From Salinarimonas sp. (lineage in GTDB: Bacteria; Pseudomonadota; Alphaproteobacteria; Rhizobiales; Beijerinckiaceae): a stretch of DNA of 64,000 nucleotides. Position 1 is the stretch's first letter. Each line of letters starts with the position of its first letter. Location: the NCBI RefSeq assembly GCF_040111675.1, contig NZ_CP157794.1:4694444-4758443 (forward strand). The letters run 5' to 3'. Shown here one piece after another: positions 12,711 through 64,000 of this stretch. The notes below the pieces were generated by a model, which was given only the letters and a program-made list of their open reading frames with translations, had not been told where the DNA came from and made no database searches. Both the position numbers and the translations under genes were made by a program.

Positions 12711-12839
12711 GCGACGTTCCGCCCCAGTGAAGGGCTTGACCTTCAATCTAGTTCACTGGCAGCTTCGGCGTGACCGAAGGGTGCGTCACCCGTCGCCAGC
12801 ACACCGAATAACTACGGAACCGTTCGGAGGAATGAACAC

Positions 12840-13337: not shown

Positions 13338-13392
13338 GACAGGCCGCTGCGCCGGATGCGCCGGCGCCCTGGCGAGGCGAGGAGCTCGCGTC

Positions 13393-14037: not shown

Positions 14038-14090
14038 GCGTGACGCGGCGCACCGTGACCGGCCAAGGCCCGCAGCGCCGCGATTTCCCC

Positions 14091-39951: not shown

Positions 39952-40069
39952 GGGGCGTCCCCGGTTCGACGTCGCCGCGGCTCTGTCGCGTCATGCCGGG
40001 CGCCGACGCCGGCGTGGTGCTTCCGGGCGCGGATGGGCTTCGCCGTCCGGTAGCGAGGACGCGAGGACG

Positions 40070-42744: not shown

Positions 42745-42863
42745 CGTTCGGCTCTCTCGGGATGGAGGGCGGCCGGATCGTCTCGGTCCTCGATACATGC
42801 GCGCGCGGCTCGTCCGCCTCCGCGGGTCGTTCGGCGCGCCGAGCATCGGCTCCGGCGGGCCGA

Positions 42864-43826: not shown

Positions 43827-43893
43827 CGCTTTCTCCTTGCACGGGACCGTGGACGAGGCCGCGGTCGGGTCTCGCGCAGCAGGATAGGCTGTG

Positions 43894-43916
43894 TATTTTT
43901 CTTGTCGACAGGAAAG
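43894..43916 (+). promoter_or_regulatory. candidate GntR-type operator TATTTTTCTTGTCGACAGGAAAG
   Basis: It contains the TGTCGACA palindrome (43903-43910). It lies 68-90 nt upstream of the DapA-like start and has a near-identical inverted copy at 44655-44676. Confidence 0.4.
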
Positions 43917-43943
43917 AGACGCGGACGGATCTGGGCGATCGCC

Positions 43944-44648: not shown

Positions 44649-44654
44649 CGTCGA

Positions 44655-44676
44655 CCTTTCGTCCACAAGCAAAATA
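44655..44676 (-). promoter_or_regulatory. candidate GntR-type operator (minus strand TATTTTGCTTGTGGACGAAAGG)
   Basis: It lies 7-28 nt upstream of the GntR ATG and matches the core of 43894-43916 at about 14/16 positions in inverted orientation. Confidence 0.4.
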
Positions 44677-44891
44677 CAGAAGGGACGGACGAGATCAACG
44701 CCGACACGCCGCCAGATGCGCCGCCCGCGCGTGCCGAGGCGCCGAGGGGGCCGCCGTGACGTCGGAGCCAGGACGACTCCGCAGCCGGGTCGAGCTGGCG
44801 GCTGCATTCTCGCTCAGAAGCATCGTCCAGCCAGTGGGCTCGCAGCGTGTTCCACCTGCCTGTGGCCCCCTCCGGATCGTCCCCGGACCGT

Positions 44892-48540: not shown

Positions 48541-49143
48541 ATGCTCGCCGGTGCGACGCTGATCCTGCTGGGCGTGTGCGCGCTCGCGCTCGTCCCCTTC
48601 CTTCAAGCCCGGCGGAGCGATGCGGTTTCACGGCGCGCCCCGCGCGACGGCGTCTGGCTCTTCGGCGGCGGCCTCGCGTTTCCCCTCGCGACGCTCCTCG
48701 CGCTGATGCTCTACGCCTTCGTGCTGGACCCCATCGACGACGCCGCGCGCACCGGCGCCGCGCCGCTGCGCGTCGAGGCGGTGGCGCGGCAATGGGACTG
48801 GCGCTTCGTCCATCCGGACGCGCCCGGCGGGCCGCTCGAGACGGAAGGGCGCCTGCACGTCCCCGCCGGCCGGCCGGTCGAGGTCGCGATCACGAGCGAG
48901 GACGTGATCCATTCGTTCTGGGTGCCGCGCCTCGCGGGCAAGCGCGACGCGATCCCGGGGCGGGTGAACACGATCACGATCCTCGCCGAGCGCCCCGGCG
49001 TCTACGGCGGGATCTGCGCCGAGTTCTGCGGCTACGGCCATGCCGGCATGCGCTTCGAGGTCGTCGTCCACGAGGCGAGCGCCTATCGCGGCGTGATGGC
49101 CAGCCTCGCGGCCGACCCGCGGACACGGGAGGCGCGGCGATGA
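48541..49143 (+). CDS. coxB: cytochrome c oxidase subunit II (CuA domain)
   Basis: Last part of ORF 47269-49143. CuA ligands are present (DVIHSFWVP...CAEFCGYGHAGM). 48541 is the first ATG, but conserved-looking N-terminal sequence lies upstream without a start codon (see findings). Confidence 0.75.
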   Translation: MLAGATLILLGVCALALVPFLQARRSDAVSRRAPRDGVWLFGGGLAFPLATLLALMLYAFVLDPIDDAARTGAAPLRVEAVARQWDWRFVHPDAPGGPLETEGRLHVPAGRPVEVAITSEDVIHSFWVPRLAGKRDAIPGRVNTITILAERPGVYGGICAEFCGYGHAGMRFEVVVHEASAYRGVMASLAADPRTREARR

Positions 49144-51665
49144 ACGACCCCGTCGTCGCCGCCCGCCGCTCCAGGGCGATCCGCCTGCATCGCGGCCTCT
49201 CCGCGATCTGGGACACGCCGCCTGGCCTCCCGCGCCTCGCGGCGGTGAACCACACCATCGTCGGGCGGCGCTTCATGCTCACGGCGCTCGCCTTCTTCGC
49301 CGCGGCGGGCCTGCTGGCGATGCTGATCCGCACCCAGCTCGCCGTTCCGACGAACGACTTCCTGGGACCCGACGCCTACAACCAGATCGTCACGGTGCAC
49401 GGCACGGTGATGATGTTCCTGTTCGCCATCCCCTTCATCGAGGGGCTGGCGATCTACCTCCTGCCGAAGCTGCTCGGCGCGCGGGACCTCGCCTTCCCGC
49501 GCCTATCGGCCTTCGGCTACTGGTGCTACCTGATCGGCGGCACGACCGTGCTCGGCTCCATCGCCTTCGGCGCCGCGCCCGACGGCGGCTGGTTCATGTA
49601 CGCGCCGCTCTCGACGAAGCCCTACTCGCCCGGCATCGGCGCGGACGTCTGGCTGCTCGGCATCACCTTCGTCGAGGTCTCCGCCATCGCGGCGGCGGTG
49701 GAGATCGCGGTGACGATCCTGAAGGTGCGCGCGCCGGGCATGTCGCTGTCGCGCATGCCGATCCTCGCCTGGTACCTCCTCGTCACGGCGATCATGATCC
49801 TCGGGGGCTTCCCGCCGCTGATCCTCGGCTCGATCCTGCTGGAGACCGAGCGCGCCTTCGGATGGCCGTTCTTCTCGCCCGAACGCGGGGGCGATCCGCT
49901 GCTGTGGCAGCACCTGTTCTGGCTGTTCGGCCACCCGGAGGTCTACATCATCTTCGTGCCCGCGGCCGGCGTGATCTCGACCGTGCTCCCCGTCTTCGCC
50001 CGCCGGCCGATCGTGGGATATTCCTGGGTCGTCGCCGCCGTGGTGGCGCTCGGCTTCCTGTCCTTCGGGCTGTGGGTGCACCACATGTTCGCCACCGGGC
50101 TGCCGCGGCTCTCGCTGGGCTTCTTCTCCGCCGCCTCGCTGCTCGTGACGGTGCCCACCGCCGTGCAGATCTTCGCCTGGCTGGCGACGCTCGCGAAGGG
50201 CCGCCCGGTCCTGTCGCTGCCGATGCTCTACATCCTCGGCTTCTTCTTCGTCTTCGTCGCCGGCGGGCTCACCGGGGTGATGGTGGCGATCGTGCCGTTC
50301 GACGAGCAGGTGCACGACACGCATTTCGTCGTCGCGCACCTGCACTACGTCCTCATCGGCGGCTTCGTCCTGCCGGCCATCGCGGGCGTCTACTATTGGC
50401 TGCCGCAGATCTCCGGTCGGGTGCCGGTCTTCGGCCTGGGCAAGACCGCGTTCTGGCTGATCTTCGCCGGCTTCAATCTCACCTTCCTCGTCATGCACTG
50501 GACGGGGCTCCTCGGCATGCCCCGGCGCGTCTTCACCTACGAGGAGGGGCTCGGCTGGCATCTGCCGAACCTGATCTCGTCCTTCGGCGCCTTCCTGCTC
50601 ACCGCGGGCTTCGCCCTCGTCGCCCTCGACCTCTTCCTGCAGCTGCGCCACGGCAAGTCGTTCCGGCGCAATCCTTGGGGGGCGGGCACGCTGGAATGGG
50701 CGATGCCCACGCCCCCTGCGCCCTACAATTTCGCGAGCCTGCCGCACGTCTCCGATCGCGACCCGCTCCACGCCGAGCCCGCCCTGCCCGAATGCCTCGC
50801 CGCGGGCGAAGGCTATCTCGGACGCGTTCACGAGGGCCGCATGGAGACCCTCGTCGTCTCGATGGTGGAGGGGAAGCCCGAGCAGATCCTCCTCCTGCCG
50901 AACCAGGACTACACGCCGCTCTGGACGGCGCTCTCCCTCGCGGTCTTCTTCGGCGCCATGCTGGCGGGGCTCTACTGGCTCGCCCCGGCGGGGCTCGTGC
51001 TCACCCTCGTCTTCGCCTGGCGCTGGGCGGCGAGCGGGGCGATGCGGGACGATCCGCCGATCGAGGACGCGGGCCGCGGCGTTTCCCTGCCGCTCCACCT
51101 CGCCGCGCCGCGCCCGCCGGCCTGGTGGGGAATGGTGTTCCTGCTCCTCGCCGACGCGATCCTGTTCGGCTCCCTCGCCTTCGGCGCGATCTACCTCGCG
51201 ACCTTCGCGCCCGGCTGGCCGGCGACCGCGCCCTGGGAGCCGGCCTCGGCCGCGGCGCTCGCCGCCGCGATCGCGCTGGCGCTCGCGGGGCTCGCGGGCC
51301 CTGCGGCGATGGGCGCCAACCGTCGCGCCGGGATCGCCCGCGGCGCGATGCGGGACGCGCTCCTCGCGCTCTGCGCCGCGGGAAGCCTCGGCGCCCTCGC
51401 CGCGCTCGCCTGGCTCGCCTGGGCTCTCGACCCGACGGCGCACGCCCACGGCGCGGTGGCCGGCGCGCTCCTCGCCTATGCGGGCTTTCACGCGCTGATC
51501 GGGCTCCTCACGAGCGCCTTCGCCCTGCGCGGGAGCCTCGCCGGCCTCGTCTCCGACGTCCGCCGCACGCCGGTCGAGGTCGCCGCGATGTGGCAGGCCT
51601 ATACGGCCGCGACGGGGCTTCTCGCGCTCGTCCTCGCCCTCTACGCGCCGGAGGCGCTGCGATGA
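49140..51665 (+). CDS. ctaD: cytochrome c oxidase subunit I fused to a subunit III-like C-terminal domain
   Basis: ATG 49140 (ATGA overlap) within ORF 48531-51665. 841 aa. Heme-copper motifs are present (WFFGHPEVYI-like LFWLFGHPEVYIIF, HHMF, HDTHFVVAHLHYV), followed by ~280 aa of additional TM helices. Confidence 0.9.
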   Translation: MNDPVVAARRSRAIRLHRGLSAIWDTPPGLPRLAAVNHTIVGRRFMLTALAFFAAAGLLAMLIRTQLAVPTNDFLGPDAYNQIVTVHGTVMMFLFAIPFIEGLAIYLLPKLLGARDLAFPRLSAFGYWCYLIGGTTVLGSIAFGAAPDGGWFMYAPLSTKPYSPGIGADVWLLGITFVEVSAIAAAVEIAVTILKVRAPGMSLSRMPILAWYLLVTAIMILGGFPPLILGSILLETERAFGWPFFSPERGGDPLLWQHLFWLFGHPEVYIIFVPAAGVISTVLPVFARRPIVGYSWVVAAVVALGFLSFGLWVHHMFATGLPRLSLGFFSAASLLVTVPTAVQIFAWLATLAKGRPVLSLPMLYILGFFFVFVAGGLTGVMVAIVPFDEQVHDTHFVVAHLHYVLIGGFVLPAIAGVYYWLPQISGRVPVFGLGKTAFWLIFAGFNLTFLVMHWTGLLGMPRRVFTYEEGLGWHLPNLISSFGAFLLTAGFALVALDLFLQLRHGKSFRRNPWGAGTLEWAMPTPPAPYNFASLPHVSDRDPLHAEPALPECLAAGEGYLGRVHEGRMETLVVSMVEGKPEQILLLPNQDYTPLWTALSLAVFFGAMLAGLYWLAPAGLVLTLVFAWRWAASGAMRDDPPIEDAGRGVSLPLHLAAPRPPAWWGMVFLLLADAILFGSLAFGAIYLATFAPGWPATAPWEPASAAALAAAIALALAGLAGPAAMGANRRAGIARGAMRDALLALCAAGSLGALAALAWLAWALDPTAHAHGAVAGALLAYAGFHALIGLLTSAFALRGSLAGLVSDVRRTPVEVAAMWQAYTAATGLLALVLALYAPEALR

Positions 51666-52641: not shown

Positions 52642-53577
52642 TCACGCCGAGGCGGGCTTGCGGGCGCGCCGGAGCGAGACGGTCCCGTAGACGGTGAACG
52701 CCGTGAGCAGCAGCACGCAGACGAGGCTCGCCTGCGAGACGGCGAGGCGCGGATCGGCGAGCTGGGCGAGATAGGTGAAGATCAGGTTCGTCGAGAACAG
52801 GAGCGAGACCGTCATCGGCTCGGTGCGCGAGATGCCGATCTGCAGGAGGTAGATGCCGATGAACACGCCTATGACGGTGAGCACCGCGATGGTGCCGATG
52901 GTCGCGGGCGTGTAGGGCGACCACGAGCCCTCGCTCGCCAGGATCGCGAAGGCGACGACATTGAGCAGCGTGAACCGCACCGTCATGATGTCGGCCGAGG
53001 AGAAGTCCCGCTCCGTCAGCGCCTTGGTCACGTAGGTGTTGGTGCTCACCCCCAGCGCGGTGAGGAGCGCCGCGACGACGCCGACGGCGACGGTCGTCCA
53101 GGGCAGCGCGCCCAGCCCGCTGAGGCCCTGCGCGGAGACGGCGACCAGGGCGAGGACCGAGAGGGCGCAGCCCACCGCCGCGACGAGCTCCTGGCGGAGG
53201 ATCGGCGCGTTCGGCCGCAGCCGCGGCGCGAGGGCGAGGGTGATCAGCGGGATCGCGCCGACGATGAGGCCGTTGACCACCGCCGGCTCCAGCGCATCGA
53301 GGGCGTAGAGCACGGCGAGCCAGCTCAGCGCCGTCGTCACGTTGATGGCCAGGACGTGCCGCCAGGCGCCGCGCGCCTTCGCGAGGAGCGCGCCGCGCTC
53401 GCGATGGGTGGCGAGGTAGACGATCTGGGCCAGCACGAAGCAGTTCACCGCGATGAAGGCCGGCGACAGCGTCACCAGGACGTAGCCCTCGAAAACCGAC
53501 TTCGCGGCGTTCATCAACGTGTAGCCGAGCACGTAGACGGCGCCGGGCACCACCCAGGCCGCCTCACGCCGCGACAT
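52642..53577 (-). CDS. EamA/DMT-family transporter (putative exporter)
   Basis: ATG 53577 within ORF 52642-53646. 311 aa with about 10 TM segments in two EamA-like halves. It overlaps the upstream ATP-grasp stop by 14 nt. Confidence 0.85.
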   Translation of the reverse strand: MSRREAAWVVPGAVYVLGYTLMNAAKSVFEGYVLVTLSPAFIAVNCFVLAQIVYLATHRERGALLAKARGAWRHVLAINVTTALSWLAVLYALDALEPAVVNGLIVGAIPLITLALAPRLRPNAPILRQELVAAVGCALSVLALVAVSAQGLSGLGALPWTTVAVGVVAALLTALGVSTNTYVTKALTERDFSSADIMTVRFTLLNVVAFAILASEGSWSPYTPATIGTIAVLTVIGVFIGIYLLQIGISRTEPMTVSLLFSTNLIFTYLAQLADPRLAVSQASLVCVLLLTAFTVYGTVSLRRARKPASA

Positions 53578-54805
53578 CGTAGAAGCTCTCCCGGTCGAGA
53601 TGCCGGATCGTGCGGGAATCGCGCACGACGGCGGCCGCGTCCGCATGAGCGAGCACGATCATCATCGGGTAGGTCACGTCGTTGATCGTCACCTTCAGGT
53701 CTCCGCCCGGACGCACGATCTCGACGATCTCGCGGAAGGTCTCCAGCGCCTGGACCGCGGGCAGGCCCGGATAGCCGACGAGCCGCCCCGCGCGGCGGCT
53801 GATCAAGGCGGTGGAGGAGACGGTGGCCTCGAGCCGGTAGGGCGTCCCGGCCTCGGCGCGGAAGCGCTCCGGCTCGGCGTAGGCGGTGGCGATCCAGTCG
53901 ATCTGGCTCCGGCCGAGGCCCGTCCGCGCGATGCGCGAGAGCGGGCCGCCCACCAGCCGGGCGCCGAGCTCGACGAGGCGCGGGCCTTCGCGGGTCATCC
54001 GGATCTCGAGATGGGCGGGGCTGTCCGTGACCCCGAGCGCGTCGAGGCAGGCGCGGGCGTAGGGCGCGAGCCGGTCCTGCACCTCGCCCGTCGCGGGCAG
54101 GAGGATGGCCGAATCGAGCAGGTTGAGCACGCCGTTGGCGGCGACGTGCGTCGTCAGCCAGATCTCGGCGATGTGGTGCACGCCGCCACGGCTGACCGTG
54201 TTGACGTAGTACTCGTGGCCGTCGAGGTAGGATTGTGCGACGACCGCCTCGATCAGGTCGCCGTAGAAGCTCGTTCGTCCCACCACCGCGTCGAAGGCCG
54301 CGCCGGCTTGCTGCGGCGTGTCGCAGAAGGAGACGCCGTCGTTGAGCGCGGAATTGAGCGGCTTCACCACGATGCGCGCGCCCTGCTCGCGGGCGAAGGC
54401 TTCGACCTCGGCGCGGCTGCGGCACAGGCGCTGCGCCGCCGCCGGGACGCCGGCCTCGTGCAGCGCCTCGATCATCGCGTACTTGTCGCGCCGCAGCGCC
54501 GTCGTCGTCGGGTCGTTGGTGGGCGCGCCGTGCGCGAAGGCGAGCGCCTCGGCGAGCTCGACGCCGTACTCGGATCCGGCGATCACCTGCTCGACCCCGA
54601 GCGCCCGCAGCCGCGCCGCGGTGGCGGCGAGATCGCCCTCGTGCACCACGTTCTCGACGAAGTCGCCGGGCCGGAAGGTCGGCGCGTGCATGGCGAGGAG
54701 CGTCGGCCGGCTCTGCACGTGTACGCAGGCCGCGCCGCGCCCGGCGAGCGCCGGAGCGATCTGGTTCGCCGACGAATAGGCGTTGACGATGGCGATGCGT
54801 CTCAT
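53564..54805 (-). CDS. ATP-grasp ligase (L-amino-acid-ligase-like)
   Basis: ATG 54805 (ATGA overlap) within ORF 53564-55735. 413 aa: MRRIAIVNAYSSANQIAPAL...RDKYAMIEAL...IVVKPLNSALNDGV...QSYLDGHEYYVNTV...HLEIRMTREGPRLVELGARL. Confidence 0.8.
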   Translation of the reverse strand: MRRIAIVNAYSSANQIAPALAGRGAACVHVQSRPTLLAMHAPTFRPGDFVENVVHEGDLAATAARLRALGVEQVIAGSEYGVELAEALAFAHGAPTNDPTTTALRRDKYAMIEALHEAGVPAAAQRLCRSRAEVEAFAREQGARIVVKPLNSALNDGVSFCDTPQQAGAAFDAVVGRTSFYGDLIEAVVAQSYLDGHEYYVNTVSRGGVHHIAEIWLTTHVAANGVLNLLDSAILLPATGEVQDRLAPYARACLDALGVTDSPAHLEIRMTREGPRLVELGARLVGGPLSRIARTGLGRSQIDWIATAYAEPERFRAEAGTPYRLEATVSSTALISRRAGRLVGYPGLPAVQALETFREIVEIVRPGGDLKVTINDVTYPMMIVLAHADAAAVVRDSRTIRHLDRESFYDVAA

Positions 54806-55905
54806 CGGGCGGCCTCCGCGAGGGGTACGAGGTCGTCGGCGACCGGTCCGACGACGAAGGCGCCGCGCCGGTTGATGGCGTCGAGGCGCGCGATGTCGGC
54901 CTCGAGCACCTCGAGCGCGGCGTGCGCGAGGAAGACCGTGGCGCCGTAGCTGTAGCCGTCGAAGGTGGGCGCCGCCCGCGCGCCGAGGGCGGGCTCCTGG
55001 TAGAGGTAGCGATAGGTCGGCAGGCGCCGGATCTCGGGCAGGTCCGGCAGGTCGAGGAGCACGCCTTCCTCGTCGACGACGAAGGAATAGTCGGCGACGA
55101 AGCCCTCCGGCTCCGGCGTGTCGGGGAGCGCGGTCTCGAAGCCGTGCGCGCGGGCGCGCTCGAACAGCGCGCGCTGCCCCGGCTGCCCGCCGAGGCGGCA
55201 CAGCGCCGGCAGCGGCTCCGTCGCGAGACGCGGCGCGGCCTTGACCAGCCGCGCCCCGCCGGCTTGCGTGAGCACGAGCTCGAAATGCACGGGCCCGGCG
55301 AGGATGCCCAAGGCCCGCGCGAGGCGCCCGAGCCGCTCCGTGAGATCGGCCGGCAGCGCCGCGCGCGGCAGGTTGACGACGCTCGCGAGAATGTCGCGGC
55401 AGCCGATCGGCATCAGGATGCAGCGCCAGACGTCGGCGAGGGCGAGGCGCCCGCCCGACACGACGCCGTTGACGAAGATCGGCTGCCCGGGCTCGTGGAC
55501 GTGCGCGTGCAACGCCCCGCAGCGCGCGAGATAGGCGCGCTCGGCCGGGCTCGGCGGCCGGTCCGGGCCGATCACGAGGGCGGAGCCCTTGGACGAGGCG
55601 GAGAGCCGCGGGCGCACGACGAGCGTGCGCTCCGGCGCGGACGGCACGTCCTCGGCCCGGGCCTGGTCGACGGCCTCGAAGGCGAGGTCCGGCTCGACCT
55701 TCCGGACGAGCGCGTGCTGCAGGCTCTTGTCGCACAAGGCGGCCGGGTCGGCCTGCGGATTGAAGAAGCCGGCGCGGGCGTTGCGGGAGGCGGCCTCGAT
55801 CACCTGGGCGTCGGTCTCGGCCAGGGTGAACGGGCCGCGCGGCGTCGCGACCCGCACGAGGCCGGGCGCGAGCGTCTCGACGGGCGGAGCGATCCAGTCC
55901 GTCAC
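54802..55905 (-). CDS. second, divergent ATP-grasp-like ligase
   Basis: GTG 55905 (GTGA overlap) within ORF 54802-56463. 367 aa. ATP-grasp C-terminal pattern is present (GPVHFELVLTQAGGARLVKAAPRL). Confidence 0.7.
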   Translation of the reverse strand: MTDWIAPPVETLAPGLVRVATPRGPFTLAETDAQVIEAASRNARAGFFNPQADPAALCDKSLQHALVRKVEPDLAFEAVDQARAEDVPSAPERTLVVRPRLSASSKGSALVIGPDRPPSPAERAYLARCGALHAHVHEPGQPIFVNGVVSGGRLALADVWRCILMPIGCRDILASVVNLPRAALPADLTERLGRLARALGILAGPVHFELVLTQAGGARLVKAAPRLATEPLPALCRLGGQPGQRALFERARAHGFETALPDTPEPEGFVADYSFVVDEEGVLLDLPDLPEIRRLPTYRYLYQEPALGARAAPTFDGYSYGATVFLAHAALEVLEADIARLDAINRRGAFVVGPVADDLVPLAEAAR

Positions 55906-56651
55906 AGCCCGAGCTCCGCGCGCGTCTGGCCCTCGAAATGGATGCGCCGCACGCCGCCGTCGCGCGGCTGCGTCAGCGCGAAGCGCACGGCGTTCCAGAT
56001 CGCCGGCTCGCCCAGCAGCGACCCGGGCGCCCGCGGCGCGTACCAGTCCGGCGACAGCGGCTCGACGTTGTCGAAGTCCGGCGGGAACAGGCCCGTGACG
56101 CGGATGCCCTCCGGCGCGAGCCGCGCGCCGAGCACGTCGCAGAAGCCGGCCACGCCGTGCTTGGCGGCGTAGAAGGCCGGGTGCGCGTTCGAGCGCAGGT
56201 AGCCCGGCTCGCCGCAGACCGAGACCATGGCGAGGATGTCCGCCTGCCCGGCCCGTCGCAGCGCGGGCAGGAGGCGCTTCGTGAGGATCATGGCGCCGGT
56301 CAGGCTGGAGCTCACCGTGTCCGCGATGTCGGCGTCGTCGACCTCGTCGAGCTCGCCTTCGAGCCAGCGTGCGGCGTTCAGGACGAGGACGTCCACGCCG
56401 GAGCCGTCGCCAGCCACGGCCTCGGCGAAGGCCGAGACGGATTCGGGATCGGAGACGTCGCAAGCGTGCGCCCGCGCCCTGCCGCCACGGTCGCGGATCG
56501 TCATGGCCACGGCCTCGGCGGCGTCGCGGTCGCGCGCCGAGAGCTCGACGGCGCCCCCCTCGGCCGCGAACATGATCGCGAGCGTGCGCCCGAAGTCGCG
56601 GCCCGCTCCGGTGATGACGATGCGCTTGCCGGCGAAGGGTGCGGCGCTCAT
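55902..56651 (-). CDS. SDR-family oxidoreductase
   Basis: ATG 56651 (ATGA overlap) within ORF 55902-58271. 249 aa with ITGAGRDFG and YAAKHG motifs. Confidence 0.85.
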   Translation of the reverse strand: MSAAPFAGKRIVITGAGRDFGRTLAIMFAAEGGAVELSARDRDAAEAVAMTIRDRGGRARAHACDVSDPESVSAFAEAVAGDGSGVDVLVLNAARWLEGELDEVDDADIADTVSSSLTGAMILTKRLLPALRRAGQADILAMVSVCGEPGYLRSNAHPAFYAAKHGVAGFCDVLGARLAPEGIRVTGLFPPDFDNVEPLSPDWYAPRAPGSLLGEPAIWNAVRFALTQPRDGGVRRIHFEGQTRAELGL

Positions 56652-57415
56652 GCGGCGGTCTCCTCGTGCGTTGCGGCGGACTGGTCCGGGACGGTGTGGC
56701 TGCCCGACGCGTTCTCGGCGTAGAGCGTGGTGGCGATGTAGGCGGCGGCGCCGGGTCCCCAGCGCTCCGGGGAGACGTAGTCGTCGTGCTCGTCGGGCAG
56801 GCACTCCGCCAGCATGCGGGTGTTGATGCCGCCGCCGGGATCGAGCGCCACGGCGCGCACGCCTTCGGGCAGGTCGTGCCGGAGCGTGTCGACGATCCCC
56901 TCGACCGCGAACTTGCTCGCGCAATAGGGGCCGAGCCCCCAATCGGCGCTGCGTCCCCAGCCCGAGCTCGTGGCGACGAACAGCCCCGACCCGGCGGCGA
57001 TCATCGCCGGCAGGAAGGCCCGCGCCGTGATCGCCACGCCGAGGACGTTGACGTCGAGCACGCGACGCCATTGCGCCGTCTCGATCTCCCATACCGGCCG
57101 GCGCGGGTTGATCACCCCCGCATTGGCGACGACGAGGTCCGGCGCGCCCTCCCGGCAGGCCTCCTCGGCGAAGCGCGCCATCGCATCCTCGTCGGTGACG
57201 GAGGCGACGTGCACGAGGTGGCCCGGGCCGAGCGCGTCGGCGACCGCGCGCAGGCGCGCGGCGTCGGTGGCGCAGCCGGCGACGACGGCGCCGCGCGCGG
57301 CGAAGGCCCGCGCCAGGGCGAGCCCGAGGCCCTCCGAGACGCCGGTGATCACGACCCTGCGCGGCTCGGCCGGCGCAGGGTCTCGGGTGGCGGACGCAGT
57401 GGACGCGGTCGACAT
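56648..57415 (-). CDS. SDR-family oxidoreductase
   Basis: 255-aa ORF with an RBS GGGAGA and the motifs VITGVSEGLG, NAGV and YCASKFA. Confidence 0.85.
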   Translation of the reverse strand: MSTASTASATRDPAPAEPRRVVITGVSEGLGLALARAFAARGAVVAGCATDAARLRAVADALGPGHLVHVASVTDEDAMARFAEEACREGAPDLVVANAGVINPRRPVWEIETAQWRRVLDVNVLGVAITARAFLPAMIAAGSGLFVATSSGWGRSADWGLGPYCASKFAVEGIVDTLRHDLPEGVRAVALDPGGGINTRMLAECLPDEHDDYVSPERWGPGAAAYIATTLYAENASGSHTVPDQSAATHEETAA

Positions 57416-57436: not shown

Positions 57437-58210
57437 TCAGGTCCGCGCGGGGGCGAGCCGCGCGATCGGGTCGAGGCTGCGGGCCGCGTAGGCCGGCGGG
57501 CCGTTGGCGGGCCAGGGGGACAGGACCGTCTCCGCCGACACGAGCGCGAGGCCCGAGACGAAGACGAACGGCACGCCGAGCGCGCGCGCCGCGTCCCTGT
57601 CGGCCACGGCGTCGCCGAACAGGACGGCCTCGTCCGGGCGCAGCCCGCGCTCGGCGAGGAGCGCGGCCATGGCCTCGGCCTTCGGCGTCGGCGTGCCGAT
57701 CACCGCGTCGAACGCGCCGGCGAAGCCGGCGGCGTCGAGGGCGCGCGCCGCTTCGGCCCCGACACCACCGGTGACGACGGCGCAGGGTCGGTGCGCCGCG
57801 CGCAGCATGCCGACGAGAGCCCGCGCGCCCGGCGCGGGCGCCGAGAGCGGGTAGCGCTCGGCGAGGAGCGCGGCGTAGGCCGCGGTGCGCGTCCGCACGA
57901 AATCCTCCGCATCCTCGGGTGCGCCACCCAGGATGCGGTGAAAGGTGGCGAAATGCTCGGCCCGGCCGCGGCCGAAATTGGCCGCGAAGGTGGCGAGGCA
58001 GGCCTCGCGCTTCTCCGCCGGCGCGTCCGCGAGCACGTCCGCCACCGCATCGAGCTTGACCCGGTTGGCGTCGAGCAGCACGCCGTCGCAGTCGAAGAAG
58101 GCCATCGCCGCCGCGCGGGCGATCTCGCCCACGCTGCGCGGCTCGCTGCCGGGCTCGAGGTCGGGAGCCCCGGAGAGCGGCTGGCGGCCGGCGGCCGCGA
58201 GCGCGCTCAC
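57437..58210 (-). CDS. HAD-superfamily hydrolase
   Basis: 257-aa ORF (GTG start, GTGA overlap with the upstream stop). Motif I is FFDCDGVLLD and the late motif is FGDAVADRDAA. An internal ATG at 58105 is an alternative start. Confidence 0.75.
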   Translation of the reverse strand: MSALAAAGRQPLSGAPDLEPGSEPRSVGEIARAAAMAFFDCDGVLLDANRVKLDAVADVLADAPAEKREACLATFAANFGRGRAEHFATFHRILGGAPEDAEDFVRTRTAAYAALLAERYPLSAPAPGARALVGMLRAAHRPCAVVTGGVGAEAARALDAAGFAGAFDAVIGTPTPKAEAMAALLAERGLRPDEAVLFGDAVADRDAARALGVPFVFVSGLALVSAETVLSPWPANGPPAYAARSLDPIARLAPART

Positions 58211-59247
58211 GACGCCCTCCGCGCGGACTCGAGGAGACCGGCGTCGTAGCGGCCCTTGGGGGACGACGCAACGAGCCGGTCGAGAACGGCGAAGCGATCG
58301 AGATCGGTCATGGCGGCGTCCTCGGCGAGCTTCTGGGCGTAGGTCGGATGCAGGCCGACGCGGGCCTGCCAGCGGTAGAGCGGCGTCGCGCCCCAGCGGC
58401 TCTCGGCGCGCAGAGGCTCGACGTGGCGGGCGAGGAAGCGATCGCAGGCGGCGAGCGCCTCCGGCGTCGGCGCGGAATCGAGAAGAAGCCGCACCGTCTC
58501 GGTCGCCGCGTTGCCGGCGCCGCGGCCCAGCCCGCCCATGGTCGCGTCCACCATCCGAGCGCCCGCCTCGATCGCCGCCTGCGTGTTGGCGACGGCGAGG
58601 CCGATATTGTCGTGGGCATGGAAGCCGAGCGGGGTGGCGAGGGCGGCGCCGACGGTCTCGAACAGGCGGGTCACGTCCGCCGGCCGCATGCGCCCGAAGC
58701 TGTCGGCGAAGTACAGCGCCTGGATCGGCGCCTCGCCGAGGCGCCCGGGCAGCTCGGCGGCGAGCTGCTCGGGCGGCAGGTCGGCCGCCTGCATCAGGTT
58801 GACGATCGGGGTGATTCCGCGCGCCGCGAGCGCCGTCGCGACCGCGGCCGCGCCCGCGAGCCCGTCCATGCGGGTCGCGACGCGCACGGTCTCGATCGTG
58901 ACCGGCGCCTCGGAGAGGCGCTCGGCCACGCGGTCCGCCGCCTCCTCGGGCGCGACCCGCGCGGCGTCGGCCGCATCGACCATGACGGCCGCCGAGACCC
59001 GAGGGGCCTCGGCGAGGAGCGCGCGCTGCGCCAGCGTGAGGGAGCGCGGCAGGTCCGCGTAGTCGCCCGACGGCGCAGCCGGGGTCGGCGCCGCCACCCG
59101 CAGGTAGCCGAGCTCGACACGGTCGACGCCGAGCGCGGCGCAGACCGTGAGCCAGTCCGCCACGAACCCGTCCGAGAAGCGCCAGTCCGTCTGGTAGCCG
59201 CCGTCGCGCAGGGTGCAGTCGAGGAGGAGCGGGCGCGGGCGGGTCAT
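58207..59247 (-). CDS. HMGL-like / DRE-TIM metallolyase (pyruvate-carboxyltransferase-type aldolase)
   Basis: 346-aa ORF with an ATGA overlap and the motifs LLDCTLRDGG and GFHAHDNIGLAVANTQAAIEAGARMVDATMGGLGRGAGNA. Confidence 0.8.
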   Translation of the reverse strand: MTRPRPLLLDCTLRDGGYQTDWRFSDGFVADWLTVCAALGVDRVELGYLRVAAPTPAAPSGDYADLPRSLTLAQRALLAEAPRVSAAVMVDAADAARVAPEEAADRVAERLSEAPVTIETVRVATRMDGLAGAAAVATALAARGITPIVNLMQAADLPPEQLAAELPGRLGEAPIQALYFADSFGRMRPADVTRLFETVGAALATPLGFHAHDNIGLAVANTQAAIEAGARMVDATMGGLGRGAGNAATETVRLLLDSAPTPEALAACDRFLARHVEPLRAESRWGATPLYRWQARVGLHPTYAQKLAEDAAMTDLDRFAVLDRLVASSPKGRYDAGLLESARRAS

Positions 59248-59627
59248 TCGGCCGCCTCCCGCGCGCCGGACCCCGCGGGGCGGCTCCAGTTGAAGATCGG
59301 GTCCAGGCGATACCAGTTGAGCGCCGTGTCGTTGCCCTCGATGCGGCGCAGCAGCTCGCCGTGCATCAGGTCGTCCCAGCGCTGGACGACGGGGTGCATC
59401 GCCAGCGCGCGGGTGAAGTCCCGCTGCGGGTCGAAGCCCTCCTCGGCCTCGACCTGCATGAACAGCGTGCGCGGCGGCAGGAGGTGGATCGACATGGCGC
59501 GCAGGCCGATGGCGTCGAGCGCGCCGCCCGGGCCGGAGATCTCGGGGGGGACGGCGCGATGGGCCTCGCGATAGCGCGCGAGCGCCTCGTCGGACACGAC
59601 CTCGATGGCGAAACCGATGCGAATCAT
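59244..59627 (-). CDS. L-rhamnose mutarotase (RhaM/DUF718) family protein
   Basis: ATG 59627 (ATGA overlap) within ORF 59244-59801. 127 aa: MIRIGFAIEVVSDEALARYREAHRAVPPEI...LFMQVEAEEGFD...HPVVQRWDDLM. Confidence 0.7.
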   Translation of the reverse strand: MIRIGFAIEVVSDEALARYREAHRAVPPEISGPGGALDAIGLRAMSIHLLPPRTLFMQVEAEEGFDPQRDFTRALAMHPVVQRWDDLMHGELLRRIEGNDTALNWYRLDPIFNWSRPAGSGAREAAE

Positions 59628-60562
59628 GCTGCCTCTCCCATGTCGGCGGCGGTGGTCACGGTGGCGAGCAGCCGGTCGTAGACGGTCTCGACCTCGGCGA
59701 GCGTCTCCGGGTCGACGTGGTAGTCGAGCGGCGGGCGGATGTCGGTGCGCTCGATGAGGCCACGGCGATGCAGGAGGTGCTTCGAGATCCCGAGATAGCA
59801 ATCTATGCTATTCATCATGTGACACATCAAGTACGAAAGCGGGTAGGCGATCTCGCGCGCCTCGCGCTCGCGCCCGGCCTCGAGAAGCCGCCAGAGGCGA
59901 ACCGTGATCTCGGCGATCTCGGTGGCGGGGATGACGCCGGCGAGGCCGCGGCGATAGGTGTCGGCGAGCATCATTCCGCCGTCGCCCTCGAAGATCCGCG
60001 CCTTGCCGCCGGTGGCCTCGCGCAGGAGCGAGACGCGCGGCGGGGTGGGCGCCGATTCGGGCTTGAACTGCACCTTCTCCGGCCCGTAGGCGGCTAACAG
60101 ACGCGCCTGCACCGCGATGGAGAGCGGCCGCTTGGCCAGGCTCTTGGCGTGGTGGACGAGGATCGGCAGGCCGACGGAGTCGATGACCGCCGCGAAGTAG
60201 CGGTACATTTCCTCGTCATCGAGGGCCATGATCGAGGGATGCATCACGAGGAGCGCGTCGCAGCCCGCCTTCTCGGCCTGGCGCGAGAACTCGATCGCCT
60301 CGCGAATGCTTTCTCCGCCCGTGCTCATCACCGAGACGCCGCGCGCGCCGCAGCTCTCGGCGAGCAGCTCCGCGACCCGGAAGCGCTCCGCGGTCGTCAG
60401 GCGCGAGACCTCCGAGACCTGGCCGACGACGACCCCGCTGCAGCCCACGTCGAGCATGTGCCCGACCTGCCTGCGAAAATCGGCCTCGTGGACGTCGCCG
60501 CGTTCGTCGTAGGGCATGATGACGACGGGAAGAACTCCCGCGAGAGCTTTTGCGCTGGTCAT
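59624..60562 (-). CDS. DapA/DHDPS/NAL-family class I aldolase
   Basis: 312-aa ORF with an RBS AAGGAA. Family pattern is present, with the Schiff-base Lys in VQFKPES. It is the first gene of the minus-strand operon. Confidence 0.85.
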   Translation of the reverse strand: MTSAKALAGVLPVVIMPYDERGDVHEADFRRQVGHMLDVGCSGVVVGQVSEVSRLTTAERFRVAELLAESCGARGVSVMSTGGESIREAIEFSRQAEKAGCDALLVMHPSIMALDDEEMYRYFAAVIDSVGLPILVHHAKSLAKRPLSIAVQARLLAAYGPEKVQFKPESAPTPPRVSLLREATGGKARIFEGDGGMMLADTYRRGLAGVIPATEIAEITVRLWRLLEAGREREAREIAYPLSYLMCHMMNSIDCYLGISKHLLHRRGLIERTDIRPPLDYHVDPETLAEVETVYDRLLATVTTAADMGEAA

Positions 60563-60700
60563 ACCTGTTCCTTTGGGTAGCGGTGAGAGGCTGGCCGCAA
60601 CACGCAGGCAAGCGGATCAGCGAGATAGAATGGCAATCAAAGCGTGTCAATCTAAAATTTTTGATCGGAGCGCATTGCTCAGCTGCACAATCTGCGATAC
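60563..60700. promoter_or_regulatory. divergent promoter region of the putative biosynthetic cluster
   Basis: Minus strand: TTGACA (60645-60650), a 17-nt spacer, then TATCTC (60622-60627). Plus strand: TTGATC (60661-66). The AT-rich stretch TCTAAAATTTTTGATC lies between the two -35 elements. Confidence 0.5.
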
Positions 60701-62080
60701 ATGACCGGGAACGTAGATGCTGCGCCGCACGGGCGCGGCCCAACTCCGGAGGCGCGAAACGTGCGGACGGCTCCCACTGTGCTCGATCTCGTCGGCGTCG
60801 GCTTCGGCCCGGCGAACCTCGCCCTGGCACTGGCGCTGGAAGAAGACGCTTCTTCGAGCCGCAGCGCCTATTCCAGACTCTTCCTCGAAGCGAAGAGAGA
60901 CTTCTCGTGGCACAAAGGGATGCTGCTCGACGGCGCCACGATGCAGATCTCCTTCCTGAAGGATCTCGTCACGCAACGCAACCCGCAGAGCCCTCACAGC
61001 TTCCTGTGCTATCTCAAGGACCGCGGCCGGCTGGCCGACTTCCTGAACCTCAAGGACTTCTTTCCGACCCGGCTCGAGTTCCACGACTATTTCAAATGGT
61101 GCTCGGAGGCCGTCGGTCCCGTGGTCCGCTACAACCAGAAAGTCCTCTCCGTGGATCTGGCGACGCCGGGCGGCGCGGCGGTCGCCACGCTCGCCGTGAC
61201 GGCGCGCGGGGCCGACGGAACGGAGCGTACGCATTTCACCCGCGCCGTGTCGCTGGCGATGGGTCTCGCGCCGCGCCTGCCGCTCGGGCTCGCGGCCGGG
61301 CCCCGTGTCTGGCATACGAGCGATCTCCTTCCGCGGACCACCGCCCTCGCGCCGTCGGCGAGCCCGCGCTTCGCCGTGGTCGGCGCCGGCCAGAGCGCGG
61401 CCGAGGCGGTCGAGCACCTGCTCGCGCGCTTCCCGGATGCACGCGTGCACACGATCATGAGCCGGCTCGGTTTCACGCCCTCCGACGATACGCCCTTCGT
61501 CAACCGGGTGTTCGATCCGACCATGGTCGACAGCTATCACGCCATGTCGCCGGAGCTGCGGTCGCACGTCCGCTCGACGCACGCCAACACCAATTACAGC
61601 GTCGTCGACCAGGACCTGATCGCCGCGCTCTACAAGCGCTGGTACGCCGATCGGGTGGCGGGGCGCGAGCGTCTCGTGCTGGAGCCGCTCTCGCGCCTGA
61701 CCGACGTCGAGGAGACCGCGGACGGGCTGCGGCTCGGCCTCGCGGCGGCGGCCGGGCCCGGAACCCGCGCGCTCGAGGTCGACTACCTCGTCTGCGCCAC
61801 CGGCTACGACCCCGTCTCGCCCGACGCGGTGCTCTCGCCCGCCTTGAGCGCGCTCGTCGAGCGCGACGCCTCCGGCGCCCCGATCATCGAGCGCGACTAC
61901 CGCCTGCGCACCCGCGCGCCGCTCCTCGCCCCGATCTACGTCCAGGGCGACTGCGAGGCGAGCCACGGCCTCTCGGCGACGCTGCTGTCCAACCTCGCGC
62001 CGCGAGCCGGGGAGATCCGCGACAGCCTCGCGGCGTACCTGGCCGGGCTCCAGGAGGAGGCGCGCTATGCCAGCGCCTGA
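60701..62080 (+). CDS. lysine/ornithine N-monooxygenase (SidA/IucD/PvdA family flavoprotein)
   Basis: 459-aa ORF with FAD motif GVGFGPANLALA, NADPH motif VVGAGQSAAE and the family pattern ...MQISFLKDLVT...DYLVCATGY. Confidence 0.9.
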   Translation: MTGNVDAAPHGRGPTPEARNVRTAPTVLDLVGVGFGPANLALALALEEDASSSRSAYSRLFLEAKRDFSWHKGMLLDGATMQISFLKDLVTQRNPQSPHSFLCYLKDRGRLADFLNLKDFFPTRLEFHDYFKWCSEAVGPVVRYNQKVLSVDLATPGGAAVATLAVTARGADGTERTHFTRAVSLAMGLAPRLPLGLAAGPRVWHTSDLLPRTTALAPSASPRFAVVGAGQSAAEAVEHLLARFPDARVHTIMSRLGFTPSDDTPFVNRVFDPTMVDSYHAMSPELRSHVRSTHANTNYSVVDQDLIAALYKRWYADRVAGRERLVLEPLSRLTDVEETADGLRLGLAAAAGPGTRALEVDYLVCATGYDPVSPDAVLSPALSALVERDASGAPIIERDYRLRTRAPLLAPIYVQGDCEASHGLSATLLSNLAPRAGEIRDSLAAYLAGLQEEARYASA

Positions 62081-63146
62081 GCGCGAGACGGTGGTGATCG
62101 GCGCCGGCGTGATCGGCGCCGCCGCGGCGCTCGCCCTGCGCCGGGCGGGACGCGCCGTCGCGCTGCTCGACGCCGATCGGGTCGCCGCCGGTGCGAGCGG
62201 CTGGTCGGGAGGCGTGGCGCGCGTGTTCCACCTCGACGCCGAGGAGGCCGCCCGCGCCGCCTACGGCCTGCCGATCCTGCGCGACCTCGCACGCGCCATC
62301 GGCGTGGGCGTGCCCTTCCACGAGACGGGCTACCTCTACTTCCCGAAGCCGCAGGACCGGGAGGCGGCGCTCGCCGCCGCGCGCGCCCTCGCGCCGGAGC
62401 ACGGAACGGAATTCGTCGGCGCCGGCCAGCTCGCGACCCTCTATCCCGGGCTCGCCCTGTCGGGCGAGGGGGCGATCCACGAGCCGCGGGCCGGCTTCGC
62501 CGATCCCCGCGCCGTCGCTCTCGCCTATGCGGAGGCCTTCGTGCGCGCCGGCGGCCGGTCGCTCGAGGGCGTCCGCGTCGGGGCGCTCGCGCCCGACGCC
62601 GGCGGCGTGCGGCTCGAGACGACGCTCGGCCCGATCCACGCCGACCAGGTGGTGCTCGCAGCCGGCTACGCGACGCCCGGCATGCTCGACGCGCTCGGCG
62701 TCGCCCACGACCTGTTCTCCCGTTCCATCCAAGTGACGCTGTTCGAGCCGCCGCATCGGATCGTCGCGCCCGCCTTCACGGACGAGGAGCTCGACGTCTA
62801 CGGCAAGCCCGATCCGGCGAGCGGAGGCCTCTACGTCGGCGCGCCGACCACGGCCGAGAGCCGCGGCGAGATCGCCGCAGAGCCCGTGGACGCCGACCAC
62901 GTCGGGCGGACGATGGCGGCGGCCCGCGACCGCTTCGGCTGGATGGACGCCGCGCGCCCGCGCGGCGGCCTGCGCCACGCCGACTGCTACAGCGCGCGCG
63001 GACGCGGCGAGGTGTTCCGCCTGCCGGGCGCGCTGTCGCGCATCGTCGTCGCCGCCGGCTTCTCCGGCGGAGGCTTCAAGATGGCGCCGTGGGCCGGCGA
63101 AGCCGCCGCGGCGCTCGTCGCGGAGCGCGCCGCCGACGCCGCCTGA
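62067..63146 (+). CDS. FAD-dependent oxidoreductase (DAO / glycine-oxidase-like)
   Basis: 359-aa ORF with an RBS AGGAGGAGG, the N-terminal motif VVIGAGVIGAAAALAL and C-terminal GFSGGGFKMAP. Confidence 0.85.
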   Translation: MPAPERETVVIGAGVIGAAAALALRRAGRAVALLDADRVAAGASGWSGGVARVFHLDAEEAARAAYGLPILRDLARAIGVGVPFHETGYLYFPKPQDREAALAAARALAPEHGTEFVGAGQLATLYPGLALSGEGAIHEPRAGFADPRAVALAYAEAFVRAGGRSLEGVRVGALAPDAGGVRLETTLGPIHADQVVLAAGYATPGMLDALGVAHDLFSRSIQVTLFEPPHRIVAPAFTDEELDVYGKPDPASGGLYVGAPTTAESRGEIAAEPVDADHVGRTMAAARDRFGWMDAARPRGGLRHADCYSARGRGEVFRLPGALSRIVVAAGFSGGGFKMAPWAGEAAAALVAERAADAA

Positions 63147-63233
63147 CCCCGATCCCCCGCTTCCCGCTTCTCGATCGTCTCGACCCACGCGCGGCCGGCC
63201 GCGCGCCGTCAGGCCAGCTCTCGGAGACCAGAC

Positions 63234-64000
63234 ATGCAGATCTTCGACCTGTTCGATTTCACGGGCGAAGCCTACGACCTCAAGTGCCGCCCCTTCGCGC
63301 CGAAGGGCGCCCCCGCGGGCGCCATGGTCTGCGAGGTCGCGCCCGGATCGGTCTCGCGCATCCACAATCACGCGGAGGCCGAGGCCTTCCTCGTGCTGGA
63401 GGGCGCGGGCCACGTCACCGACGGGACCGAGCGCCGGCCCATCGCCGCCGGGCAGGGCGTGCTGTTCCCGCCCTTCGTCAATCACGTGATCGAGAACGCC
63501 GACCCCGACAAGCCGCTGCGGATGATCTCGATCTACTGGATGGGCGACCTCGCCGCCGACGACGCCGCCGCGAAGGCCGGCGCGCCGCGCGACACGCTCG
63601 TCTTCTCGACGCCGCCGACCCCCAACGGCGATCTTCATCTCGGGCATCTCTCCGGGCCCTATCTCGCCGCCGACGTGCTGCGGCGCGCGCTCGCCCAGCG
63701 CGGCGCCGCGGCGCTCCACGTCACCGGGCGCGACGACAACCAGACCTACGTCCTGCTCAAGGCCTCGCGCGAGGGCTCGACGCCGACGGACGTCGCCGAC
63801 CGGTTCGCGCAGGCGATTCGCGGCACGCTCGCCGCCGCCGACATCCCCCTCGACGGCTTCATCGAGCCCGACCGCGACGGCCTCTACGCGGCTTTCGTCG
63901 CCGACCTCGTGGCGCGGCTCTCCGCCAACGGCTTCGTCGAGGCGCGCCGCGCCCCGGTCCTCGTCGACGACGCGGGGCGCGTGGTGCACGAGGCCTATGT
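63234..64000 (+). CDS. cupin domain fused to a methionyl-tRNA-synthetase-like class I catalytic domain (hydrazine synthetase-like); truncated by the window end
   Basis: Not in the ORF track (no stop in the window). ATG 63234 follows GGAGA. Cupin motifs are SRIHNHAEAEAFLVLEG and GVLFPPFVNHVIEN. The class I aaRS core follows: FSTPPTPNGDLHLGHLSGPYLAADV (HLGH at 63636-63647). Confidence 0.85.
   Translation, partial: MQIFDLFDFTGEAYDLKCRPFAPKGAPAGAMVCEVAPGSVSRIHNHAEAEAFLVLEGAGHVTDGTERRPIAAGQGVLFPPFVNHVIENADPDKPLRMISIYWMGDLAADDAAAKAGAPRDTLVFSTPPTPNGDLHLGHLSGPYLAADVLRRALAQRGAAALHVTGRDDNQTYVLLKASREGSTPTDVADRFAQAIRGTLAAADIPLDGFIEPDRDGLYAAFVADLVARLSANGFVEARRAPVLVDDAGRVVHEAY

Follow-up and report, generated by a model that had tools for sequence, protein, structure and literature searches.

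The analysed window, a 64,000-nt stretch of contig NZ_CP157794.1 of Salinarimonas sp., ends in three co-directional genes on the plus strand, which encode an N-hydroxylase (gene 1), a DAO-type flavoenzyme (gene 2), and a protein in which a cupin domain is fused to a methionyl-tRNA synthetase (MetRS)-like domain (gene 3). An initial annotation, made from the sequence alone, had regarded this trio as a cassette that forms a hydrazine, that is, a nitrogen-nitrogen (N-N) bond, in an alphaproteobacterium. This origin was confirmed by the gene 2 protein, which is on record in Salinarimonas sp. The three genes are:

60761..62080, plus strand: gene 1, flavin-dependent amino-acid N-hydroxylase (SidA/IucD/PvdA family, counterpart of Por9, Spb38, and Tri26; Pfam Lys_Orn_oxgnase)
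62067..63146, plus strand: gene 2, DAO/sarcosine-oxidase-family FAD oxidoreductase (positional counterpart of Spb39, Tri27, and Por10; Pfam DAO)
63234..64000, plus strand: 5' part of gene 3, predicted cupin-MetRS-like hydrazine synthetase (255 of 676 codons in the window; the gene ends at window-equivalent position 65264)

Gene 1 was listed as an open reading frame (ORF) from 60701 to 62080, in which ATG 60701 represents an alternative upstream start. The GTG at 60761 (439 amino acids, aa) is more likely the true start, because it is preceded at a distance of 8 nt by GGAGG and coincides with the first codon of the RefSeq protein WP_349369150.1 (439 aa). Alignments of the 439-aa version with solved structures begin at residues 5-9. 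Gene 2 (359 aa) overlaps gene 1 by 14 nt (62067-62080), and a gap of 87 nt (63147-63233) separates it from the ATG of gene 3 at 63234; orientation, overlap, and gap are as initially annotated. This arrangement of overlapping or tightly spaced genes suggests co-transcription, and no terminator-like sites were found across the plus-strand operon. The remainder of gene 3 beyond position 64000 was recovered from L001, a Logan contig that was found by exact look-up of the gene 2 protein and matches the window in 1201 of 1201 overlapping bases. The complete gene (L001 11168-13198) encodes 676 aa. The 73-kb extended sequence contains no second metG-like, N-hydroxylase, or DAO gene.

Enzymes of the cassette

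Among enzymes that make N-N bonds, hydrazine synthetases form the largest family known, with published estimates exceeding 1,200 members (PMC13149037). In the complete gene 3 protein, Pfam identified Cupin_2 (residues 32-101) and tRNA-synt_1g (residues 125-508, E = 1e-66). The class I synthetase motifs are PTPNGDLHLGH, with HLGH at position 135, and KFSTS at position 452, where K452 aligns with K458 of the pyrazomycin hydrazine synthetase PyrN. The cupin domain carries the zinc ligands H44, H46, E50, and H84 (H-x-H-x3-E...H), which are spaced identically to the PyrN cupin ligands H50, H52, E56, and H90, of which E56 is essential (PMC8664883). Among 38 loci encoding relatives of gene 3, 28 contained a complete fused cupin, and the four ligands were kept in all of these except L035 (27 of 28; S/R/-/T in L035). 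A database search retrieved 703 homologs at E < 1e-10. Nearly all of the best 120 were two-domain proteins, and the fusion of cupin and synthetase is conserved in more than 100 homologs.

The best matches of gene 3 among solved structures were 9VQ4, 9L8V, 9VQJ, and 9VR2 (4e-64, 220 bits, residues 115-631), all of which represent the MetRS-like domain of PyrN (PyrN-C; preprint 10.1101/2025.08.22.671884), whereas true MetRS structures scored lower (P. abyssi, the best, 5e-50 and 174 bits; E. coli, approximately 3e-29 and approximately 105 bits). According to a residue-by-residue alignment, the PyrN residues T141, N143, Q182, D420, N421, N449, and K458, which hold ATP, the alpha-amino/carboxylate moiety, and the hydroxylamine (preprint 10.1101/2025.08.22.671884), are all conserved in gene 3, as is one of the two zinc knuckles of PyrN, the second being lost. 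In contrast, PyrN uses D-glutamate, and the two arginines that contact the side chain of this substrate, R390 and R425, correspond to G374 and H419 in gene 3. Pfam detected no anticodon-binding domain in the full protein, whose C-terminal helical bundle can be aligned with the corresponding part of PyrN-C, and in a scan of the N-terminal 255 aa the NCBIfam MetG models scored far under their cut-offs (e.g., 103 vs. 553 bits). An N-hydroxylase gene is located 1.15 kb upstream of gene 3 in the same operon, and 35 of the 38 related loci likewise have such a gene in the vicinity of the synthetase gene. These comparisons confirm the assignment of gene 3, on sequence grounds, to the hydrazine synthetase family of Spb40, Tri28, and PyrN; tRNA-independent, ATP-dependent N-N bond formation is predicted for gene 3. 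The cupin and the MetRS-like core named in the initial annotation were thus recovered, and a canonical metG, having an anticodon-binding domain and an unconserved cupin part, is contradicted on both counts.

The amino acid activated by gene 3 was predicted from the substrate pocket. In the glycine-using Spb40 this pocket consists of T128, P129, D169, Q172, W371, M374, N412, and H416 (Matsuda; PMC12376268). Gene 3 has T126, P127, D167, Q170, W368, M371, N415, and H419 (TPDQWMNH), with residues and spacing as in Spb40, and the same code is present in the gene of Por11 from Pseudomonas orientalis DSM 17489 (L010), an enzyme reported to use glycine in vivo (PMC11705231). Since all eight residues equal those of Spb40 and Por11, it is a well-supported prediction that gene 3 is a glycine-type hydrazine synthetase, as had been proposed initially.

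Gene 1 matched Pfam Lys_Orn_oxgnase with an E-value of 5e-100 and contains the motifs GVGFGPANLALA and VVGAGQSAAE, which corroborates its annotation as a SidA/IucD/PvdA-type N-monooxygenase. Among solved structures it matched the lysine enzyme MbtG (1e-120), the ornithine enzyme KtzI (2e-101), and PvdA (2e-83), and its identity with the Por9 gene in L010 is 45%. Gene 2, likewise correctly placed in the DAO family of FAD oxidoreductases (Pfam DAO, E = 4e-45), carries the FAD-binding motif VIGAGVIG. The Pfam E-values of the cassette genes lie far outside the range attributable to chance. The closest solved relatives of gene 2 are sarcosine oxidases (5e-15), a kinship that fits the oxidation of a secondary C-N bond, and in 15 proteobacterial loci the equivalent position is taken by counterparts with 27-46% identity. 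Gene 2 is presumed to act by oxidative cleavage of a C-N bond in the hydrazine adduct.

The por-type cluster around the cassette

Upstream of the cassette lies a divergent minus-strand operon whose genes are linked by 4-nt overlaps. Downstream, gene 3 is followed in order by a periplasmic binding protein (PBP)-like gene, a HAD-IIA hydrolase gene, a gene for a small membrane protein, a 4HBT thioesterase gene, and a convergent type I polyketide synthase (PKS) gene. Besides the cassette, the region comprises:

60563..60760, no strand: intergenic region separating the two divergent operons (one sigma-70-like site and an A+T-rich patch)
59624..60562, minus strand: DHDPS-family class I aldolase-fold enzyme (Por2-like; Pfam DHDPS)
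59244..59627, minus strand: RhaM-like small alpha+beta-barrel protein (Por3-like; Pfam rhaM; 59-79% identical in por-type loci)
58207..59247, minus strand: HMGL-like (DRE-TIM) 4-hydroxy-2-oxoacid aldolase-type enzyme (Por4-like; Pfam HMGL-like)
57437..58210, minus strand: HAD-IA phosphatase-like protein (Por5-like; Pfam Hydrolase/HAD_2)
56648..57415, minus strand: short-chain dehydrogenase/reductase (SDR; Por6-like; Pfam adh_short; 54-59% identical in Pseudomonas loci)
55902..56651, minus strand: SDR (Por7-like; Pfam adh_short; 50-67% identical in por-type loci)
54802..55905, minus strand: ATP-grasp-related protein of 367 aa (Por8-like; C-terminal half of NCBIfam PRK07206, 9e-10; no Pfam match)
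53564..54805, minus strand: full-length ATP-grasp ligase (PRK07206/DdaF-like; PRK07206 4e-95, above cut-off; DdaF, dapdiamide A synthase, 2e-46)
52642..53577, minus strand: EamA-family transporter, putative exporter, final gene of the minus-strand operon (Pfam EamA)
L001 13209-14099 (window-equivalent 65275-66165): PBP-like, LivJ-type (Peripla_BP_6) protein of 296 aa without signal peptide
L001 15498-21080: convergent type I PKS (KS-AT-KR-DH, more than 1,900 aa, cut by the end of the locus), with the 4HBT thioesterase and the small membrane protein

For the analysis of synteny, all neighboring proteins were compared by tblastn with the 38 loci containing a relative of gene 3. A set of 11 genes turned out to be conserved, namely those of the DHDPS-like, RhaM-like, HMGL-like, and HAD proteins, the two SDRs, the ATP-grasp-like protein, the N-hydroxylase, the oxidase, the synthetase, and the PBP-like protein. 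Loci that carry it come from Saliniramus (L002), P. entomophila (L005 and L007), Pantoea sp. Cy-639 (L009), P. orientalis DSM 17489 (L010), Xenorhabdus sp. BG5 (L011), and P. atagonensis (L032); part of it occurs in a Legionellaceae metagenome-assembled genome (MAG; L008), Serratia (L014), and a Burkholderiaceae MAG (L015). All 11 genes have counterparts in L010 with identities of 34-71%. In P. orientalis DSM 17489 the por cluster was defined by Matsuda et al. (JACS 2022; summarized in PMC11705231), and counting genes backwards from Por9 in L010 reproduces the por numbering; no report of a por product was found in the literature searched. The Salinarimonas genes thus probably constitute an orphan cluster of the por type, about 13.5 kb in size and reaching from 52.6 kb to approximately 66.2 kb in window coordinates, with the hydrazine cassette as its N-N core. 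The initial statement that the surroundings resemble no characterized N-N cluster does not hold, since 11 genes are syntenic with this published orphan biosynthetic gene cluster. Two accession numbers in PMC11705231 should be mentioned in this context. WP_057724816.1 could not be matched, and WP_057724699.1, listed there as Apy10, directly follows the number of Por9 (WP_057724698.1) and is, judged by accession numbering only, probably the P. orientalis oxidase Por10.

The Salinarimonas cluster differs from por of P. orientalis by its organization in two divergent operons instead of one and by the additional full-length DdaF-like ATP-grasp ligase and EamA transporter. Conversely, the Pseudomonas por genes are flanked by ORFs that resemble, on reading the sequences by eye, an amino-acid dehydrogenase and a pyridoxal phosphate (PLP)-dependent decarboxylase, neither of which has a Salinarimonas counterpart. 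In L010 the dehydrogenase-like ORF is located upstream (472-1503), and the PLP-dependent decarboxylase-like ORF (12819-14243) overlaps the stop codon of the PBP-like gene. The additional ATP-grasp ligase is confined to the Salinarimonas and Saliniramus versions of the cluster (62% identical in L002), and the EamA transporter had no counterpart in the 38 related loci by tblastn. The enzyme family, a large one, and the por architecture, published as an orphan, are already known; what is new is a glycine-type representative in the Salinarimonadaceae, whose cluster has its genes in a different order and two genes added. The orphan architecture is thereby extended beyond gammaproteobacteria into alphaproteobacteria.

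Within the cluster, the DHDPS-like gene shows the strongest conservation; its product is 79% identical in Saliniramus and 71-72% identical in Pseudomonas and Pantoea. It retains the Schiff-base lysine, but neither the Thr/Tyr/Tyr triad nor Arg138 of DapA. A function in capturing an amino-semialdehyde co-product, analogous to that of DapA with aspartate semialdehyde, was considered and rejected as unsupported, the triad and the Arg138 position being replaced. The RhaM-like protein had no sequence match among solved structures. The HMGL-like protein matched the NCBIfam 4-hydroxy-2-oxovalerate aldolase model under its cut-off (1e-29) and the 'putative aldolase' 3dxi (1.5e-22), and the HAD-IA protein matched models of AHBA-synthesis-associated and phosphoglycolate phosphatases, again under cut-offs. 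The Por8-like ATP-grasp-related protein is 37-53% identical in por-type loci. NCBIfam and solved-structure searches yielded generic family matches under cut-offs and no characterized pathway with the same accessory gene set. In the intergenic region, the sigma-70-like match at 60630-60658 on the plus strand (L001 8564-8592) is the only one in 7.8 kb scanned (1 vs. 0.0 expected). Its second hexamer, TAAAAT, is overlapped by an A+T-rich patch (…CAATCTAAAATTTTTGATC…) within surrounding sequence of 72% G + C, and both operons may be controlled from 60563-60760.

The PBP-like gene begins 10 nt past the stop codon of gene 3. It has counterparts (33-50% identical) in 17 of the 38 related loci, in 16 of them immediately 3' of the synthetase gene and in L008 elsewhere, and it accompanies the synthetase with or without the por accessory genes. 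The PBP-like protein may be an unrecognized fourth component of the proteobacterial cassette. It also marks the right border of the cluster as the last conserved gene, being followed by housekeeping genes in L040, where the synthetase is 64% identical. None of the 38 related loci contains a counterpart of the PKS, thioesterase, or HAD-IIA gene. Because the PKS, the thioesterase, and the small membrane protein are not conserved in any of them, the PKS probably belongs to a separate neighboring cluster. A close homolog of gene 3 with another setting was seen on a JGI metagenome contig (L041; synthetase 53% identical), which encodes an N-hydroxylase, a large PKS, three methyltransferases, and an AMP-binding enzyme, and lacks the oxidase.

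Proposed pathway and competing readings

Hydrazinoacetate is processed in the s56-p1, triacsin, azaserine, and Dob pathways by an adenylase, a carrier protein, and a succinyltransferase, whose genes come after the hydrazine cassette. In the six-gene operon tri26-31, which equals spb38-43, the N-hydroxylase, oxidase, and synthetase genes make up the first half, and purified Tri26-28 produce hydrazinoacetate. The mechanism in such systems is an ATP-dependent O-glycylation of a hydroxylamine followed by a rearrangement in the cupin domain. Spb38-40, Tri26-28, AzsL/S/N, and DobG/E share their three enzyme types and the order of these with the Salinarimonas cassette, so that the correspondence to Spb38-40 and Tri26-28 drawn in the initial annotation was substantiated by N-monooxygenase, DAO-homolog, and cupin-MetRS roles in matching sequence. 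The known pathways differ by hydroxylating lysine, by their actinomycete hosts, and by the genes that follow: counterparts of Tri29-31/Spb41-43 and DobC/Q/B (adenylase, carrier protein, and succinyltransferase) are lacking in Salinarimonas, where the PBP-like and HAD-IIA genes are found instead and the cluster encodes ATP-grasp ligases in place of the processing enzymes.

Gene structure, domains, motifs, pocket code, and synteny were analyzed directly, and the chemistry up to C-N cleavage is taken from the literature on homologs. On this basis a pathway of five steps can be proposed. The flavin-dependent N-hydroxylase would convert the side-chain amine of a basic amino acid, ornithine or lysine, to a hydroxylamine. 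The MetRS-like domain of gene 3 would adenylate glycine and pass the glycyl group to the hydroxylamine oxygen, and the zinc cupin would rearrange the O-glycyl ester to an N-N bond, yielding N-(carboxymethylamino)-ornithine or -lysine. The DAO-like flavoenzyme would then oxidize one C-N bond of this adduct, most likely releasing hydrazinoacetic acid and an amino-acid semialdehyde. Finally, the divergent operon, with its two aldolase-fold enzymes, RhaM-like and HAD proteins, two SDRs, and ATP-grasp ligases, would elaborate the hydrazine without a carrier protein; a hydrazide or amide bond made by an ATP-grasp enzyme is plausible, and the EamA transporter would export the product. This sequence of steps in a por-type cluster is considered the probable function of the locus, within which we infer the amine substrate, the cleavage side, the elaboration by the divergent operon, and the product.

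Several observations weigh against this pathway. No AMP-binding, PP-binding, or GNAT domain was detected in any cluster gene, and with them the processing functions of Tri29-31/Spb41-43 are absent. The nearest solved relative of gene 1 is the lysine enzyme MbtG, with ornithine enzymes almost level. In neighbor-joining trees of the N-hydroxylases and synthetases of the 38 loci, the por-type N-hydroxylases do not form a single clean clade. Furthermore, Apy10 of the actinopyridazinone pathway demonstrates that the family of gene 2 can cut on the amino-acid side. Finally, the oxidase is missing in a Salinarimonas sp. MAG (L006) and in Rhizobium helianthi (L022), whose N-hydroxylase, synthetase, and PBP-like genes are present and leave no room between them for an oxidase gene. 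In these two organisms the hydrazine adduct may stay intact, or an enzyme encoded at another site may cleave it.

Regarding the amine, Tri26 hydroxylates lysine and rejects ornithine, whereas Por9 belongs to the ornithine series and Por11 couples N5-hydroxyornithine or N4-hydroxy-2,4-diaminobutyric acid (N4-hydroxy-DABA) with glycine (PMC11705231). The residues of SidA that bind ornithine were judged non-discriminating, as they contact the alpha-amino-acid end common to lysine and ornithine. The por amine substrate cannot be assumed for Salinarimonas at identities of 43-45%, and without a clean por clade in the trees the ornithine preference of Por9 is not confidently transferable to gene 1. 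By analogy the amine would be either ornithine (Por9) or lysine (Spb38/Tri26). The lysine named in the initial annotation was accordingly not established, the sole partly characterized syntenic cluster (Por9/Por11) working with ornithine (PMC11705231).

The side of cleavage determines which building block is released. Apy9-11 are an N-hydroxylase, a synthetase, and an oxidase of the same families as those found here (PMC11705231). They differ in combining N4-hydroxy-DABA with alanine, the alanine side of the adduct being cut by Apy10 to give pyruvate and a gamma-hydrazino amino acid. Spb39, in contrast, releases hydrazinoacetate and a semialdehyde, although it belongs with Tri27 to the same family as Apy10, whose amino-acid-side cleavage yields a 2-oxo acid and an omega-hydrazino amino acid (PMC11705231). 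If gene 2 acted like Apy10, the C-alpha-N bond of glycine would be oxidized, glycine would serve merely as a nitrogen donor, and glyoxylate would be formed together with N5-amino-ornithine or N6-amino-lysine as the building block. Such a course is consistent with the absence of the hydrazinoacetate-processing genes spb41-43/tri29-31 and with the two pyruvate/2-oxoacid aldolase-type enzymes encoded in the cluster. However, every characterized glycine-using system (Spb, Tri, Azs, and Dob) releases hydrazinoacetate, and the genes are arranged as in the Spb/Tri cassette, which leaves cleavage of the Apy10 type rather unlikely. Hydrazinoacetate is thus somewhat favored as the released unit over an omega-hydrazino amino acid, for which the chances appear low. 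The initially proposed release of a hydrazino acid by gene 2 would hinge on this regiochemistry; Apy10-type enzymes cut the opposite side. A related uncertainty concerns the amino acid itself: some homologs accept both serine and glycine or both alanine and glycine (preprint 10.1101/2025.08.22.671884), and pocket codes are model-derived predictions, so that gene 3 might take another amino acid, or glycine among several (e.g., alanine or serine), and give rise to a substituted hydrazino acid. With the eight-residue code being the same as in the two reported glycine enzymes Spb40 and Por11, we regard this as quite improbable.

Two further readings involve the neighborhood of the cassette. The PKS and the 4HBT thioesterase genes lie 2.8 and 2.3 kb, respectively, beyond the end of gene 3, triacsin couples a hydrazinoacetate-derived unit to a polyketide, and the synthetase of L041, 53% identical to gene 3, adjoins a PKS. 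By the logic of triacsin, the hydrazine unit would then be passed to the convergent PKS as part of the same cluster. This has little probability, however, given that the PKS, thioesterase, and HAD-IIA genes are missing from all 38 related loci, including the closest ones (L002, 63%; L040, 64%), where housekeeping genes follow the PBP-like gene, and that the cluster encodes neither an adenylase nor a free carrier protein able to load a hydrazine. Even less credible is an N-hydroxylase serving a hydroxamate siderophore next to a housekeeping or spare MetRS with an accidental cupin fusion, even though siderophore pathways are the best-known setting of the N-hydroxylase family and public annotations label relatives of gene 3 'methionyl-tRNA synthetase'. 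From 38.9 kb in the window to 9 kb past its end, no IucA/IucC, NRPS, or hydroxamate acyltransferase gene was found, thus none within 9 kb on either side, and the IucA/IucC or NRPS genes which according to the initial annotation would have pointed to a siderophore if encoded just beyond the window do not occur there. Moreover, the cupin fusion with intact zinc ligands is kept in more than 100 homologs, the protein lacks a Pfam anticodon-binding domain and is closer to PyrN-C than to any MetRS, and homologs of gene 3 occur in Pseudomonas and Pantoea.

For the preferred pathway of glycine-dependent hydrazine formation and carrier-free elaboration, the best precedent of the cluster's ATP-grasp genes appears to be FuzC of the fuscazine pathway, an ATP-grasp ligase that forms a hydrazide bond with a hydrazine as nucleophile (PMC13149037). 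The Fuz system, likened here by its description, also combines a hydrazine cassette with ATP-grasp ligases and no carrier protein (PMC13149037). It differs by having the cupin and the MetRS-like part on separate proteins, by using arginine or hydroxyarginine as acceptor, and by lacking the set of aldolase, SDR, and HAD genes. Tentatively, and with somewhat less than even chances, por-type clusters, the present one among them, may make an undescribed N-N metabolite without a carrier protein, in which the hydrazine is joined to a 2-oxo or hydroxy acid built by the aldolases and SDRs, either through an ATP-grasp-formed hydrazide or through a hydrazone-type ring closure, possibly helped by the RhaM-like protein, with the cytoplasmic PBP-like protein as fourth component. 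The interest of the locus lies in this downstream chemistry and not in the cassette itself. As the cluster is devoid of the succinylation and carrier-protein logic of all characterized hydrazinoacetate pathways, its product would reveal a second way of using a reactive hydrazine building block, and a novel N-N scaffold might come to light with it. Among the hosts of the same cluster, P. entomophila and P. orientalis are tractable.

Flanking regions

Left of the cluster, three further features were recognized in the window:

48900-51665: cytochrome oxidase region (COX1, E = 6e-146), left edge of the cluster region
44.9-45.8 kb: LysR regulator
38908-44813: likely hydroxyproline-catabolism set (proline-racemase family, aconitase X, a second DHDPS-family gene, and a GntR regulator)

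The set at 38908-44813, whose likely role in hydroxyproline catabolism was read from family names, seems unrelated to the hydrazine cluster. In the cytochrome oxidase region, the ORF list is full of long spurious frames in DNA of 72% G + C.

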